Part shown: positions 22,371 through 26,806 of the stretch, in pieces
Layout: each line of letters begins with the position of its first letter
Position numbering within the stretch: position 1 is the stretch's first letter
Origin: Candidatus Oxydemutator sp.
Lineage (GTDB): Bacteria; Pseudomonadota; Gammaproteobacteria; Poriferisulfidales; Oxydemutatoraceae
NCBI GenBank assembly: GCA_965203445.1
Contig: OZ241883.1
Coordinates: 1,696,001-1,760,000 of the forward strand
Direction of reading: 5' to 3'
DNA: 64,000 nt
Translations under genes and position numbers: made by a program
The notes under the pieces: generated by a model
The model's input: the letters and a program-made list of their open reading frames with translations, nothing else
What the model was told of the DNA's origin: nothing
The model's database searches: none

Positions 22371-23144
22371 GTGATAAGGCGCGGCGATGTTCCAGGCACG
22401 CCGGTCGCGCGACCGACCCCGGATCGAGTCGCCGACACCGTCCGCTTCTACGAGATCATGCGCCGGATAGAGGCCGGCGTCGGCGGCTGCCGGCGGCTTG
22501 CCGAATGCACGGGTCGCATGGACTGGCCGCGGCGGGGTGCGTACTTCTTCTTCGAGGCCGGCGAGGCGCGCGCCGCGTCGGGCAGCGGCGGTCGCATCGT
22601 GCGCGTCGGTACCCACGCGCTGAGAAGCCAGGCGTACACCATGTTGTGGAATCGGCTTAAAGGTCATCGCGGCGTCGCCAACGGCGGCGGCAATCATCGA
22701 GGCTCGATCTTCCGTCTGCTCGTCGGTCGGGCGTTGGCCGGTCGCGGCGATTGTCCTCTGCCGTGCTCCTGGGGAATCGGTGGCTCTCCTGGTGAGGCGG
22801 CGCGCCGGCTGGGGCTTCCATCAAGTGCCGCGGTAAAGAACGCGGAAGCGGACCTGGAACGGCGCGTCAGCGACACTATCGGCCAAATGCCCTTCCTGTG
22901 GCTGAACGTGCCGGATGCGCCGGGCCCGAAAAGTGCCCGCGGATACATCGAACGCAACGCCATCGCGCTGTTAAGCCACGCGCGCACGCCCGCCGCGGAC
23001 CGTCCCTCTCCCGACTGGCTTGGGAGCCACAGCGACCGGCCGAAGGTGCGTGCCTCGGGGTTGTGGAACAGCGACCACGTAGAGGAAGACTATGACGCGG
23101 CTTTCCTGGATGAGGTGGCCGCATTGGTGAAAGCCTGGCCGTAA
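22371..23144 (+). CDS. Conserved hypothetical protein, GIY-YIG-like nuclease candidate
   Basis: GAYFFF...IVRVG...LWNRLKGH...YIERNAI pattern resembles GIY-YIG; co-oriented with the operon. Confidence 0.55.
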   Translation: MIRRGDVPGTPVARPTPDRVADTVRFYEIMRRIEAGVGGCRRLAECTGRMDWPRRGAYFFFEAGEARAASGSGGRIVRVGTHALRSQAYTMLWNRLKGHRGVANGGGNHRGSIFRLLVGRALAGRGDCPLPCSWGIGGSPGEAARRLGLPSSAAVKNAEADLERRVSDTIGQMPFLWLNVPDAPGPKSARGYIERNAIALLSHARTPAADRPSPDWLGSHSDRPKVRASGLWNSDHVEEDYDAAFLDEVAALVKAWP

Positions 23145-23208
23145 AACGAAGGCCCCCGGCCATCTCCCGGAGGGAGAGGGAGGATAAAGAGGCAGCGGGA
23201 GAAGTTGT

Positions 23209-23253
23209 CCGCAGGCCCGTGATGTAACCCTCTCCCCCTAGGAGAGGGTGGGC
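23209..23253 (+). repeat. 45-bp direct repeat copy 1, containing a REP-like hairpin
   Basis: CCGCAGGCCCGTGATGTAACCCTCTCCCCCTAGGAGAGGGTGGGC; second copy at 24113-24157. Confidence 0.8.
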
Positions 23254-23936
23254 CGATGTCGACGCCTCGGCAGGTAGCGCAGGTGGCTTACGTCGGCGTG
23301 CACCCGCTGGCCGCCCGGGCGCAGCACCGCGTAGCCGTACTGGTGCGCCAATGCCAGCGCGTCCCTTTGTGCGATTATGCACGCCATCGCCGGCGCCAGC
23401 GTATTGTCGTCGTATTCGCGCATGAGACGCCGAAAGTTGGGCAGCGTCCACTCGCGCATCCGCTCGACGTCCTCGCAGCGCAGTTTGTGCTTGACCTCGA
23501 TGACCGCGACGACCTCGCCGTTCATCATCAGGATGTCAAACTCGCCTTCTCGGCCGCGACGGCTGACTCTGACGTTGGCGCGGACGTACTCGAACTCCAG
23601 GTCGCCGAGGCGCGGTTCCTTGTTCAATGCCCGGAAGAAGAACTCCTCGGTGGCGCTTCCCCGGGTGTTGGTTATACCGCCGATTTCCTTGTACATTTCG
23701 CGCTTGGCTTCGGCCGCTTTCGCGATTGCTTTTTGGAGTTTTTTGTTGGCCGCCTTGTTAGCCGCCTCGGACTCGGCGTGTCGCTTATCAGCCACGGCGC
23801 GCCACGCCTCCGCTTTGGCGCGCCACTTATCCAATTCGGCGCGCCATGCATCCAATTCGGCACGCCACGCGGCCGCCTCGGCGTTGCTTTTGGCAATTTG
23901 TTCGAGACTCCGTTTTACTGATTCGAGTTCGTTCAT
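23238..23936 (-). CDS. Coiled-coil + PD-(D/E)XK nuclease-like protein (DUF3782-like)
   Basis: N-terminal heptads (WRAELDA/WRAELDK), then G..TEEFF...EFDILMMNG...IEVK. TACAAT lies 7 nt before the ATG; alternative start at 23945. Confidence 0.75.
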   Translation of the reverse strand: MNELESVKRSLEQIAKSNAEAAAWRAELDAWRAELDKWRAKAEAWRAVADKRHAESEAANKAANKKLQKAIAKAAEAKREMYKEIGGITNTRGSATEEFFFRALNKEPRLGDLEFEYVRANVRVSRRGREGEFDILMMNGEVVAVIEVKHKLRCEDVERMREWTLPNFRRLMREYDDNTLAPAMACIIAQRDALALAHQYGYAVLRPGGQRVHADVSHLRYLPRRRHRPTLS

Positions 23937-24112
23937 GGCCGTCATTGTACGCCCGTACGCGCGGTGCGCAAGCGGACAAAATCGAAAATCGAGGGTAAAA
24001 ACAGCCAAGTCGTTGGCATGTTCGGCAAATAAACCTGACGAACGGTTTTGCCCGAACAGGAAACCCTGCTCCCCCTCCCAAAGGGATAGGGAGCAAGGAG
24101 TGGGAAAGAGGA

Positions 24113-24157
24113 CCGCAGGCCCGTAACGTAGCCCTCTCCCCCTAGGGGAAGGCGGGC
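24113..24157 (+). repeat. 45-bp direct repeat copy 2, containing a REP-like hairpin
   Basis: CCGCAGGCCCGTAACGTAGCCCTCTCCCCCTAGGGGAAGGCGGGC, preceded by another hairpin at 24067-24095. Confidence 0.8.
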
Positions 24158-24175
24158 GGAACCTATGCTATTCTG

Positions 24176-25437
24176 GGGAATTATATACATGACACCACCA
24201 GACGAGATTGAATGAAGACACACCGAACAATCAGATACCGTTTGCATCCGCAGACACGGGCCAAGGCCCGCAAGTTGGCGGGTTTGGCGGGTGCGTGCAG
24301 GTTTGCGTGGAATCATTTCGTGGGTAAGTTGCGGGATGAGTATGCCGAGGACGGCGAGCGTGATTACCGGTTTTATTCGCTTGGTAAGAGGTTCACAGCG
24401 TTGCGAAGGGATGACGCCACGTGGTTGCAGGAGTACTCCATGGCAATAGTGCGCCAGGCGTTGAAGCCGATAGAGACTGCATACAGGCAATTCTTCAAGA
24501 AGGAGGGCGGCCTGCCGAGGTTTCACGCCAAGTATGTCCGCCCGGATAGTTTCCCGTTATGCGCCGGCGCATTCCGTATGCGCGGGCGCTATCTGTACAT
24601 CGCCAAGGTTGGCGAGGTGCTGCTACTTGGCCACAATCCCTATCCGGACGGCGTGCCCAAGTCGGGCACGGTCAAGCGGGAATGCGGCAGGTGGTATGCG
24701 TATATCACGTACGAAGTGGAACAATCCGAAGCATTGAAACCTGTAAGAGAAGTCGGCATAGACCGCAACGTCGGTCAGGTAACATTATCCGACGGGACGA
24801 TGTATCGTATGCCGGATACGGCAAAACATGAACGTCGCGTCAGGCGTTATCAGAAGAAGATGGCCAGGCGTCAGAGGCCGAACCACAAGAAGGGGATCAA
24901 GGCGTCGAACCGATGGCTACGCGCACAGTTGCTTCACCAGAAGGCACAGGCCACGTTGCGACACGTCAGACGGAATTGGTGCCATGGCGTATCAAGGCAA
25001 GTAGCTGATAAATACTCCCTTGTGCACCTGGAGCAGTTGAACAATCCAGGGATGACAAGAAGCGCCAAGGGAACAAAGGAGAAACCCGGAACCAGCGTTC
25101 GCGCGAAGACCGGACTGAACCGCGTGATCCTGGCGTCATGCTGGGGCAAGTTTCACCAGTGCCTGGACTACAAGACGAATACGAATTACATAAACCCCGC
25201 ATACACAAGTCAGACGTGCAATAAATGTGGGAACGTAGATAAAGAAAACAGAAAGACGCAGGCGGCGTTTATTTGCACCGCTTGCGGTCATCGGGACAAT
25301 GCGGATGTAAATGCCGCATTGAATATATTGGCCCTCGGGAATAGGGCTGCTGGACGTGGAGGCGGCGAGGTTACTTGGCCCATGAAGCGTCAAATGGATA
25401 CACGGCACCACTTGGTGGTGTCATGTATATAATTCCC
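24176..25437 (+). mobile_element. Non-autonomous TIR-bounded element (IS1595-like ends) carrying only tnpB
   Basis: Perfect 25-bp inverted repeats GGGAATTATATACATGACACCACCA (24176-24200) and TGGTGGTGTCATGTATATAATTCCC (25413-25437). Direct repeat CTATTCTG at 24168-24175 and 25438-25445. Confidence 0.9.
24212..25432 (+). CDS. tnpB: RNA-guided endonuclease TnpB
   Basis: N-terminal YRLHP...GACRFAWN, RuvC-I GIDRNV, RuvC-II LEQL, zinc finger CNKC/CTAC, RuvC-III ADVNAALNI. Confidence 0.93.
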   Translation: MKTHRTIRYRLHPQTRAKARKLAGLAGACRFAWNHFVGKLRDEYAEDGERDYRFYSLGKRFTALRRDDATWLQEYSMAIVRQALKPIETAYRQFFKKEGGLPRFHAKYVRPDSFPLCAGAFRMRGRYLYIAKVGEVLLLGHNPYPDGVPKSGTVKRECGRWYAYITYEVEQSEALKPVREVGIDRNVGQVTLSDGTMYRMPDTAKHERRVRRYQKKMARRQRPNHKKGIKASNRWLRAQLLHQKAQATLRHVRRNWCHGVSRQVADKYSLVHLEQLNNPGMTRSAKGTKEKPGTSVRAKTGLNRVILASCWGKFHQCLDYKTNTNYINPAYTSQTCNKCGNVDKENRKTQAAFICTACGHRDNADVNAALNILALGNRAAGRGGGEVTWPMKRQMDTRHHLVVSCI

Positions 25438-25457
25438 CTATTCTGAAACGATGTTTG
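25325..25457 (+). ncRNA. Putative TnpB omega-RNA (scaffold in tnpB 3' end and right TIR; guide from the flank); boundaries approximate
   Basis: GGCCCT...AGGGCT hairpin, GACGTGGAG...ATGAAGCGTCAA core and terminal hairpin 25398-25428. The position is typical for omega-RNAs (inference). Confidence 0.55.
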
Positions 25458-26806
25458 ATCACGTTGCCGGGCGCCTGACGGCGCTTGCCGAGCGCCTGCG
25501 CGGCGAGGTGCGGCTTACCGAGGACAATATCGCGGACACGTTGCGCGAGGTGCGCGCGGCGTTGCTCGAGGCCGACGTCGCGGTGTCGGTGGTCGGCGAT
25601 TTCATCGAGACGGTGCGCGGGCGCGCGCTCGGCGCCGAAGTGAACCGCAGTCTGACGCCCGGCCAGGCGCTGATCAAACTGGTGCGCGAGGAGTTGACCG
25701 CGCTGATGGGCGGCGCGTGTGCGACGCTCGCGCTCAACGTGCAACCGCCGGCGGTGGTGCTGCTCGCCGGCCTGCAAGGCGCCGGCAAGACGACGACCGC
25801 GGCCAAACTCGCGCTCCATCTGCGCGAAAAGAAAAAATCGGTCGCGCTGGTCAGTTGCGACGTCCATCGCCCGGCCGCGATCGAGCAGCTGGCGCAACTC
25901 GCGCGGCAGTGCGACGCCGCATGCTACCCGACCGACGCCGCGGCGCCGCCGGTGGTCGCGGCGCGCGCCGCGCTCGAACGCGCGCGCCTCGATTTTCAGG
26001 ACGTGTTGATCGTGGATACCGCGGGCCGCCTGCACGTGGACGACGCGATGATGGACGAGATCAGGGAGTTGCACGCGGCGTTGTCGCCGGTCGAGGTATT
26101 GTTCGTCGTGGACGCGATGACCGGGCAGGACGCGGTGGTCGCGGCGCGCGCCTTCGGCGAGGCGCTGCCGCTGACCGGCGTCATTCTGACCAAGGCCGAC
26201 GGCGACGCGCGCGGCGGCGCCGCGTTGTCGGTGCGCGCCGTGACCGGCAAGCCGATCAAGATGATCGGCGTCGGCGAGAAACTCGACCGGCTGGAACCGT
26301 TTTATCCGGAGCGCATAGCGTCGCGCATCCTCGGCATGGGCGAGATCGAGAGTCTGATAGATCAGATTGAGAGCAAAAGCGACGCCAAAAAGACGCGCAA
26401 ACTCGCCGCCAAGATCAAAAAGCGCAAGGGTCTCGACCTCGAGGACGTGCGCGATCAGCTGCGTCAGATGCAGGACATGGGCGGCGTCGCCGGGCTGCTC
26501 GACAAACTCCCCGCGGCGATGGTCGGCAAGGTCGCGGCCAAGGCCGATACCGCGTTTGGCGACCGCCAGACCAAGGCCATGGTGGCCGTCATAGATTCGA
26601 TGACGCCGCAGGAGCGCCGTCGCCCCGAGATCCTGAACGGCTCGCGCAAAAAACGCATAGCCGCCGGTTCCGGCACCTGTATCCAGGACGTCAACCGCGT
26701 GCTGAAGCAGCACAAGACGCTGCAAAAGACGATGAAGAAGTTCGGCCGCGGCGGCGCCCGCCAGATGATGCGCGGGCTGGGGGGAGGGCCCTTTCCCGGC
26801 CGCTGA
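25451..26806 (+). CDS. ffh: Signal recognition particle protein
   Basis: [27 protein letters not shown] and M-domain [10 protein letters not shown]. Confidence 0.97.

Follow-up and report, generated by a model that had tools for sequence, protein, structure and literature searches.

A tnpB gene between perfect inverted repeats upstream of ffh

TnpB, the ancestor of Cas12, is known for preventing the loss of IS200/IS605 and IS607 elements after scarless excision. We analyzed a 64,000-nucleotide stretch of DNA from Candidatus Oxydemutator sp. (the window; contig OZ241883.1, positions 1,696,001 to 1,760,000), part of a complete, single-contig, 2.38-Mb genome (G000 in coordinates), in which a tnpB gene lies between long inverted repeats. 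This element, termed copy A, spans 1,262 bp (24176-25437). Its perfect 25-bp terminal inverted repeats (TIRs) and the 8-bp CTATTCTG duplication around it, both proposed by a first-pass annotation of the window, were confirmed by a repeat search and by reading the flanks. The window contains a single perfect inverted repeat (24175-24200 / 25413-25438, 26 nt, 100% complementary), which consists of the 25-mer GGGAATTATATACATGACACCACCA and one ambiguous G/C, and CTATTCTG abuts both arms on the outside (Table 1).

The annotation had also called an intact tnpB the sole gene between the repeats, and this held: only one long open reading frame (ORF) lies between the arms, its product matches TnpB hidden Markov models, and the catalytic residues and zinc finger are present. 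Pfam matches over the cut-off for the 406-aa ORF were OrfB_IS605, HTH_OrfB_IS605 and Cas12f1-like_TNB, and the NCBIfam model guided_TnpB matched at 1e-62 (212.6 bits against a cut-off of 100). Alignment to solved TnpBs in the PDB placed the RuvC acidic residues in GIDRN, LEQLN and HRDNADVNAALNI and identified the CxxC...CxxC zinc finger. The ATG follows the left repeat by 11 nt in copy A and by 23-99 nt in the other copies described below, and the TnpB core stops ~100 nt before the right end.

The state of the locus before insertion could be read in relatives. Using the ffh 5' region as query and reading upstream, we found the empty site gtGCTATTCTGcgcgccATG(ffh) in 3/3 same-genus genomes, thus recovering the empty allele that the annotation had proposed to look for; the filled site in the window reads ...tatgCTATTCTG, element, CTATTCTGaaacgATG. 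As the congeners carry a single CTATTCTG and the window carries two, the element inserted 5 nt upstream of the ffh start and duplicated 8 bp. A 26-bp TIR with a 6-bp duplication had been offered as an equivalent parse; the ends of the family begin GGG and not GGGG, and this, together with the empty site of all three congeners, shows the 8-bp parse to be the correct one. The 8-bp duplication is a true target-site duplication. Among the assembled DNA contigs of four runs, no joint spanning the element was found, only breaks of contigs at the right boundary (25438).

Table 1 Features of copy A and its flanks (window coordinates).
Feature	Position	Strand	Remarks
Left flank TATG	24164..24167	+	Site of the TAM-like purine signal; -1 = G and -3 = A in copy A
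Left target-site duplication CTATTCTG	24168..24175	.	One copy in the empty site of the same-genus genomes
Left terminal inverted repeat	24176..24200	+	Outer 12 nt GGGAATTATATA family-wide; inner 13 nt CATGACACCACCA lineage-specific
tnpB, 406 aa, intact	24212..25432	+	RuvC D/E/D and C4 zinc finger; predicted omega-RNA and right repeat overlap its last ~30 codons
Predicted omega-RNA scaffold	25337..25437	+	From structure and covariation only
Closing helix GGGAAU with AUUCCC	25337-25342 with 25432-25437	+	Predicted
Second helix GGACG/CGUC of the predicted scaffold		+	RNAalifold
Long subterminal hairpin, predicted	~25398-25428	+	3' arm is the inner right repeat
Right terminal inverted repeat	25413..25437	-	Perfect complement of the left repeat
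Right target-site duplication	25438..25445	.	Reads CTATTCTG; single copy in empty sites
Predicted guide, right duplication and ~12 nt of flank	25438..25457	+	Runs over the ffh start codon at 25451; inferred
ffh, signal recognition particle protein, neighbor gene	25451..26806	+	Start codon 5 nt past the duplicated site

A family of solo-tnpB elements with common ends

The annotation had predicted further copies in different 8-bp duplications, and BLAST and tblastn searches brought them to light: the genome holds 13 full-length, stop-free tnpB copies and 2 fragments. Eight of the copies are 76-100% identical in protein, and five form a subfamily at ~60%. The terminal 12-mer GGGAATTATATA / TATATAATTCCC is common to all of them; allowing at most one mismatch, the G+C-rich genome contains 62 occurrences of it. 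Most copies are flanked by a perfect 8-bp duplication of their own (e.g. AATAGTAG, AAAATGTT, TATCTTTG, CTTTTTTG, TAATTTTT, ATTATTGT). Copies c25 and c1131 are identical at 1370/1371 positions yet sit in different duplications, and c174 and c975 are 97.3% identical; near-identical copies in different duplications mean that the family moved recently, and at least one copy pair in this genome has transposed recently. Copy A is, to judge by its sequence, old: the best whole-element identity among its three end-to-end pairs (c174, c826 and B) is 82.6%, with c174, and the same comparison over the gene gives 86.4% by BLAST.

To ask how regular these boundaries are, we examined 57 tnpB loci (13 from this genome, 4 others and 40 further ones; L011-L015 were left out as probably redundant). 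Both motif-defined ends were present at 48/57 loci, which gave 47 non-redundant elements. The two flanking 8-mers matched at 8/8 positions in 24 of these, at 7/8 in 7, at 6/8 in 3 and at fewer in 13. Shifted control windows reached at least 7/8 in only 1/384 cases, compared with 31/47 at the real boundaries, and the duplication is therefore not a product of chance.

Derivatives that lack tnpB or are truncated also occur with the same ends. They include a 163-bp miniature (G000 113341-113503), a 786-bp internally deleted copy that keeps the 3' part of tnpB and the RNA region (G000 247602-248387) and a fragment of copy-A type (G000 2222918-2223420); solo ends make up ~30 of the 62 terminal 12-mer matches.

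Relatives of the copy A TnpB (43-60% identity) were found in 17/41 genomes of a sample of the order. Among 300 genomes sampled across the class, the clade was detected at E <= 1e-60 in 2, both from the window's own family. It also appears in records of Gammaproteobacteria metagenome-assembled genomes (MAGs), of 'Porisulfidus' and 'Oxydemutatoraceae', and of one Caldilineaceae MAG. The closest TnpB homologs, in the order and in a Caldilineaceae genome, have the same ends, as the annotation had suggested they might. In the sister family, a multi-copy class of more distant tnpB genes (L104, L105, L107, L111-L116; 33-38% identity to the window TnpB) gave no IS1595-type ends in an inverted-repeat scan, and several of its copies have a GTGTGGAA motif near both ends; at a similar distance, L106 and L108-L110 do have GGGAMT...TATAC ends. 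A single TnpB clade may include both end architectures.

An IS1595 element with the same ends

The genome contains one element with the ends of this family and a transposase of its own. This 2,616-bp element (L006 1001-3616, equivalent to G000 1978350-1980965) has the TIR GGGAATTATATACTTAAATCTACA and the 8-bp duplication ATCAGAAA, and encodes a 314-aa protein that matches Zn_ribbon_IS1595, DDE_Tnp_IS1595 (1e-43) and the NCBIfam model transpos_IS1595 (6e-61). It is thus the IS1595 transposase with matching TIRs that the annotation had anticipated. Its cargo is a 436-aa fusion of an N6/N4 DNA methylase and an HNH nuclease domain. A truncated IS1595 transposase at locus L007 is also followed by a DNA methylase-like ORF (L007 1964-2782), and a methylase cargo seems recurrent in this IS1595 lineage.

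Profile searches of the whole genome gave one DDE_Tnp_IS1595 domain over the cut-off and no Y1_Tnp or Resolvase domain (0 of each); among 14 control genomes, the same searches matched DDE_Tnp_IS1595 in 1/14, Y1_Tnp in 6/14 and Resolvase in 12/14. With no Y1 or serine enzyme found and one IS1595 transposase present, the IS1595 family supplies the only candidate enzyme. IS1595 transposases occur in 27/41 genomes of the order sample, and all 17 tnpB-positive genomes are among these 27; this co-occurrence is weak evidence, since two-thirds of the sample has the transposase anyway and related genomes are not independent.

Copy A does not encode a transposase, a feature of the IS1595 family, and contains tnpB only, so it can belong to the family only as a transposase-less derivative that needs a partner in trans. 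Its ends, GGGAATTAT, fit ggnnatTAT, the consensus of the ISNwi1 group, in which passenger genes are common; copy A may belong to that subgroup. Siguier et al. are said to have described, in 2009, IS1595-family elements with passenger genes. We consider it very probable that copy A is a non-autonomous IS1595-family transposon whose sole cargo is an intact tnpB with a predicted guide-RNA (omega-RNA) module. IS1595 DDE transposases encoded elsewhere would move the solo-tnpB elements in trans, recognizing the conserved outer repeat GGGAATTATATA and a lineage-specific inner repeat of ~12 nt. The copies, the partner element and the empty site all support the annotation's proposal that TnpB was captured by an IS1595-like transposon and is mobilized in trans.

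Several observations weigh against this reading. No IS1595 transposase and tnpB were seen inside one pair of ends at the loci examined, no transposase was found within 3 kb of tnpB at 11 loci, and the nearest tnpB/IS1595 pairs in relatives are separate elements. A clean duplication is missing in 16/47 elements (<=6/8). A scan of copy A for a promoter and a terminator found neither, with no sigma-70-like promoter called by a simple scan. The copy A repeat agrees with that of the only intact transposase at 19-20/26 positions, and copy A may be immobile today.

Alternatively, an IS200/IS605- or IS607-type tnpB element could have inserted into a miniature inverted-repeat transposable element (MITE), to which the repeats and duplication would then belong. 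Nesting does occur within the family, as the tandem end motifs of c1432 (see below) attest, and miniatures with the same ends but no tnpB exist, e.g. that at G000 113341-113503. The cassettes themselves leave little space for such an arrangement: 11 nt (copy A) or 23-99 nt (the others) precede the ATG, and the conserved 3' RNA region described below runs into the right repeat. The 11 nt of copy A leave no room for IS605-type ends, and the short left spacing together with the abutting RNA region leaves none for Y1-type subterminal hairpins. Moreover, an internal motif pairs with the terminal 6 nt of the repeat, the repeats lie directly at the cassette in all 47 non-redundant members with differing duplications, and the complete genome gave no Y1_Tnp or Resolvase domain. 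The annotation had named Y1 or serine transposases and hairpin ends inside the TIRs as signs of a simple nested insertion; on this genome content and this spacing, we regard nesting as highly improbable.

Inner repeats and re-housing of the tnpB core

The outer 12 nt of the ends are the same in every copy, whereas the next ~12 nt vary between copies and match between the two ends of any one copy. Transposase-bearing IS1595 elements of relatives behave alike. Their ends could be paired at 25/32 loci, with a perfect 8-bp duplication at 22/25, and 24 of these elements, as well as the 2,616-bp element, have the same outer 12-mer as the tnpB elements. Their inner segments are lineage-specific, and the same inner types recur in tnpB cassettes: CmAAAATGCACCAA is shared by cassette c431 and an IS1595 element of the same genus, and the TTTAACTTGACAG type is found in a multi-copy IS1595 element and in cassettes of other genera. 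These matches suggest that the inner repeat most likely marks the transposase lineage on which a cassette depends. RNA pairing or gene conversion between the ends was considered as a source of the inner-repeat covariation and set aside as unneeded, since autonomous IS1595 elements display the same lineage-specific inner repeats.

An intact partner with the copy-A inner type was not found in this genome and 40 relatives. The truncated IS1595 transposase mentioned above (L007 1485-1967, 160 aa) is preceded by GGAGTTAATATACTTGACACCACTA, whose inner 13 nt match those of copy A at 11/13 positions. Because the only transposase with an A-like inner repeat is truncated and copy A appears old, copy A is probably a stranded passenger of a now-dead transposase lineage. 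The ends closest to those of the intact element belong to c2135, c174 and c975 (23-24/26), the latter two being the 97.3% pair; for c25/c1131, the 99.9% pair, agreement is only 20/26.

A quick maximum-likelihood tree of 48 TnpB proteins was compared with the distribution of inner types. Single-linkage clustering of TIR types fused many of them into one group, and only the mosaic within the genome was therefore used. The inner type CTTTAATCCGTGA occurs in both subfamilies of the genome, and the branches starred on the tree force at least two changes of type; copy A is sister to c174/c975, which bear another inner type. Given this mosaic, the tnpB core has been re-housed several times between IS1595 lineages, whether by nesting or by recombination. 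The left end of c1432 (G000 1432384-1432460) carries two end motifs in tandem and is a snapshot of end replacement by nesting. The outer motif there is GGGAATTATA-CTTTAAATCCGTA, followed directly by GGGAGATTATATAGACAACTTGACAA and then by the tnpB ATG, and the right end is of the outer type only.

A predicted omega-RNA scaffold that includes the right repeat

Every cassette ends in a 3' stretch of 100-145 nt that is conserved in DNA, even across subfamilies. Within this region an internal GGGAAU complements the last six bases of the element, AUUCCC: 278/282 cells pair across the family, compared with 86-186 of 282 after a shift of the partner by 1-3 nt. Variants of this closing helix include GGGAGU/AUUCCC in 6 elements and GGGAAU/GUUCCC in 2, and compensatory forms are present as GGGAAC/GUUCCC in c896 and, both in a different genus and in a class at 37% identity, as GGGGACU/AGUCCCC. 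RNAalifold on 46 sequences recovered the closing helix and the second helix GGACG/CGUC. Between the two lies a long hairpin whose 3' arm is the inner right repeat. In 45/46 elements at least 6 of 12 inner-repeat bases are paired in this hairpin (median z -3.7 relative to shuffles). Since the inner repeat is paired whatever its type, the 5' arm of the hairpin has followed each change of repeat type. The right repeat thus appears to be built into a predicted omega-RNA scaffold that would run to the last base of the element. Rfam gave no family match in 23000-26500.

With the scaffold modeled to the last base, the guide would be expected to start at the right copy of the duplication and to consist of this copy and the adjacent flank. 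This placement draws on the rule for IS200/IS605 elements, where the guide comes after the scaffold, and is in line with the Fanzor1 RNAs described as running past the duplication (PMC10711439). A hard-wired guide in the variable stretch before the right terminal 12-mer, directed at the left end, was also considered and rejected: the 5' part of the stretch does not match the left end in register, and the stretch is the 5' arm of the hairpin formed with the inner repeat.

The position of copy A, 5 nt before the essential ffh with a predicted guide that covers the ffh start codon, could suggest that the tnpB copies have been domesticated as host-serving, guide-RNA-directed regulators (TldR-like) or as defense genes, with the repeats as relics. 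TldR-type proteins are nuclease-dead; the catalytic D/E/D of copy A is intact. The 13 copies lie at unrelated sites with fresh duplications and include one near-identical pair, the predicted guide is flank-derived and differs at each copy, and the site is empty in 3/3 congeners. Domestication is accordingly very unlikely indeed.

Other features of the insertion site concern ffh and the DNA to its left. By inserting 5 nt upstream of this essential gene, the element separates ffh from its former upstream DNA, and transcription of ffh must now start within the element or pass through it. An outward-reading TATAAT lies within the right end, where a simple promoter scan calls none. The region upstream of ffh could not be aligned between the window and the three congeners. 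At window ~24113-24160, 7 nt left of the insertion site, lies a palindrome-containing repeat of ~45 nt (...CCCTCTCCCCCTAGGGGAAGG...), of which the genome contains at least 14 further partial copies (85-94% identity); it looks like a dispersed repeat of the repetitive extragenic palindromic (REP) kind, and contig depth increases across it.

A one-sided purine signal in the left flank

If the guide consists of the right duplication and its flank, its target is the empty allele, and the target-adjacent motif (TAM) is the end of the left flank. We therefore tabulated the flanks of 31 non-redundant cassettes with a duplication match of at least 7/8. Immediately 5' of the left duplication, at -1, 31/31 cassettes have a purine (A in 15, G in 16), and 28/31 have one at -3; C occurs at -2 in 1/31, G at -4 in 15/31, and the first two bases of the duplication are never G. 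The mirror positions on the right side gave a purine-equivalent at -1 in 14/31 (Fisher p = 7e-7), and 20 autonomous IS1595 elements gave 11/20 and 7/20 on their two sides, or 18/40 together (p = 1.5e-7). Nine further independent insertions, which played no part in framing the idea, bear a purine at -1 in 9/9 cases and at -3 in 7/9, bringing the -1 purine to 40/40 independent insertions (31 tabulated and 9 parsed by eye). The right end always places CCC before the right duplication, the opposite of the purine signal, and this is what a rule for avoiding self-cutting would require.

These observations suggest a mechanism in which TnpB would cut the uninserted allele (left flank, a single 8-mer, right flank), with the last bases of the left flank serving as its TAM. 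Cutting could then drive or restore insertion through recombinational repair, either by copying the element to sister chromosomes or by restoring it after loss. Such homing on the empty allele would explain a purine 5' of the left duplication in every surviving insertion. We propose only tentatively that the left-flank purine is a short TAM and a sign that TnpB acts on the empty allele. It is, likewise, a serious possibility, though short of probable, that TnpB is not idle cargo: with a guide RNA built around the right-end binding site of the transposase, it may cut the empty allele through a purine TAM, such that only suitably placed and oriented insertions survive.

Caution is warranted on several counts. 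The nine extra insertions were parsed by eye, and one of them, L097, depends on the choice of boundary; the autonomous control comprises only 20 elements; and the signal amounts to one invariant purine with weaker preferences, whereas characterized TnpB TAMs have 4-5 specific bases. The omega-RNA, its 3' end and the guide are predicted from structure and covariation, with one mismatch in 4/47 closing helices and most helix columns invariant, so that the covariation rests on few lineages. DDE cut-and-paste excision leaves a break in the donor in any case, and the benefit of homing is not obvious, a point that a 2026 review makes in its treatment of TnpB (PMC13565253). A metagenome scan with GAAGCGTCAA-N(24-54)-TATAATTCCC returned 24 loci, roughly the number expected by chance on a rough estimate; 0/24 had TnpB similarity, and the scan yielded no replication set.

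The same flanks could also arise if TnpB were an IS1595 passenger with no homing role, the purine bias stemming from an asymmetric target preference of the transposase, from the needs of tnpB expression or from sampling. We hold this to be a serious possibility that falls short of being probable. The degeneracy of the signal, reduced to one invariant purine, would fit it; autonomous elements trend weakly in the same direction on the transposase-proximal side (11/20 vs 7/20), and homing seems redundant where DDE excision already breaks the donor (PMC13565253). The bias is, however, one-sided and tied to the orientation of tnpB (31/31 vs 14/31 on the mirror side), whereas a two-fold symmetric transpososome should give a mirrored preference, and the same transposase family without tnpB gives 18/40. 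Recent insertions (c25, c1131, c174 and c975) conform as well. As for expression, the bias falls 9-12 nt upstream of the element, where a -35 box for the left-end TATATA would not be expected. Finally, the right end presents pyrimidines (CCC) where the signal demands purines, as self-avoidance predicts.

Relation to known systems

The annotation had rated the novelty of the locus too highly. DDE-associated TnpBs with inverted repeats, and solo copies moved in trans, were described in 2023: Altae-Tran et al. (PNAS, PMC10691335) report six DDE-associated TnpB branches (DDE-1 to DDE-6), all with inverted terminal repeats, and solo TnpBs whose ends are nearly identical to those of transposase-bearing elements, from which trans mobilization was inferred. 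Copy A resembles these branches in having tnpB between inverted repeats, with its 3' end within 250 bp of the transposon end and with solo copies that carry the ends of a transposase-bearing element. The main text of that paper names IS630 (DDE-6) as the only insertion sequence family, without the term 'IS1595', and the 2026 review lists ISL2, IS630 and IS1031 as TnpB-associated DDE families (PMC13565253). Our literature searches on TnpB with IS1595 found no paper on the association. The kind of element that copy A represents is thus already in print, and copy A is an unusually well-documented further member of it. The passages of PMC10691335 on these branches contain no analysis of target duplications, no empty site, no TAM-like flank signal and no repeat within a scaffold. 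The placement of the right end within a predicted guide-RNA scaffold and the one-sided purine in the left flank appear to be new; three things go beyond the published record as we found it: inner repeats specific to transposase lineages, between which tnpB was re-housed repeatedly; a right repeat placed in the predicted scaffold; and, above all, the one-sided purine signal.

Members of the IS1595 family have 8-bp target duplications and ends starting with GG (PMC8101967), both of which copy A shares; unlike them, it encodes no transposase, and its cargo is an RNA-guided nuclease whose predicted guide-RNA scaffold extends into the right repeat. Inverted repeats and duplications are both absent from IS200/IS605 and IS607 elements, which depend on Y1 or serine TnpA enzymes and insert beside a fixed TAM of 4-5 nt (PMC4810608, PMC13565253). 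With the IS200/IS605 (IS1341 group) and IS607 elements, of the ISDra2 type, copy A has in common the TnpB family, a predicted 3' omega-RNA that runs to the last base and a predicted right-flank guide. It differs in its 25-bp repeats and 8-bp duplication, in residing in a genome where no Y1 or serine enzyme was found and in the 8-bp duplicated spacer between the putative TAM and the left end. The closest parallel in eukaryotes is with Fanzor1 and Fanzor2*, which ride TIR transposons with target duplications (PMC10711439; PMC3627910), the Fanzor1 RNAs running past the duplication (PMC10711439). Copy A is similar in being a cut-and-paste transposon, often non-autonomous in its kind, whose inverted repeat is predicted to lie in a guide-RNA scaffold. 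Unlike the Fanzors, it is prokaryotic, has an IS1595 (Merlin-related) partner and has an 8-bp duplication that varies between insertions and is no short fixed motif; being variable, this duplication cannot be a fixed part of the scaffold or of the TAM.

The presence of TnpB in DDE transposons, whose excision leaves a break, is treated as unexplained in the sections of the 2026 review that deal with it (PMC13565253). The Oxydemutator genome offers a compact natural test bed for this question, with 13 intact cassettes, an intact and a decayed partner transposase, a recently transposed pair, an empty site and lineage-specific ends. Two specific predictions follow: that the guide consists of the duplication and flank, and that -1 must be a purine and -3 is preferably one. 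Should the flank signal not be a TAM, the locus is a well-documented but ordinary member of the kind described in 2023. If it is, these small TnpBs (~375-400 aa) with a very relaxed TAM could be of interest for genome editing. Homing, if true, would offer the first evidence of a prokaryotic DDE transposon whose life cycle is shaped by an RNA-guided process of this kind, and would also explain why the same tnpB core has been re-housed repeatedly between lineage-specific ends.

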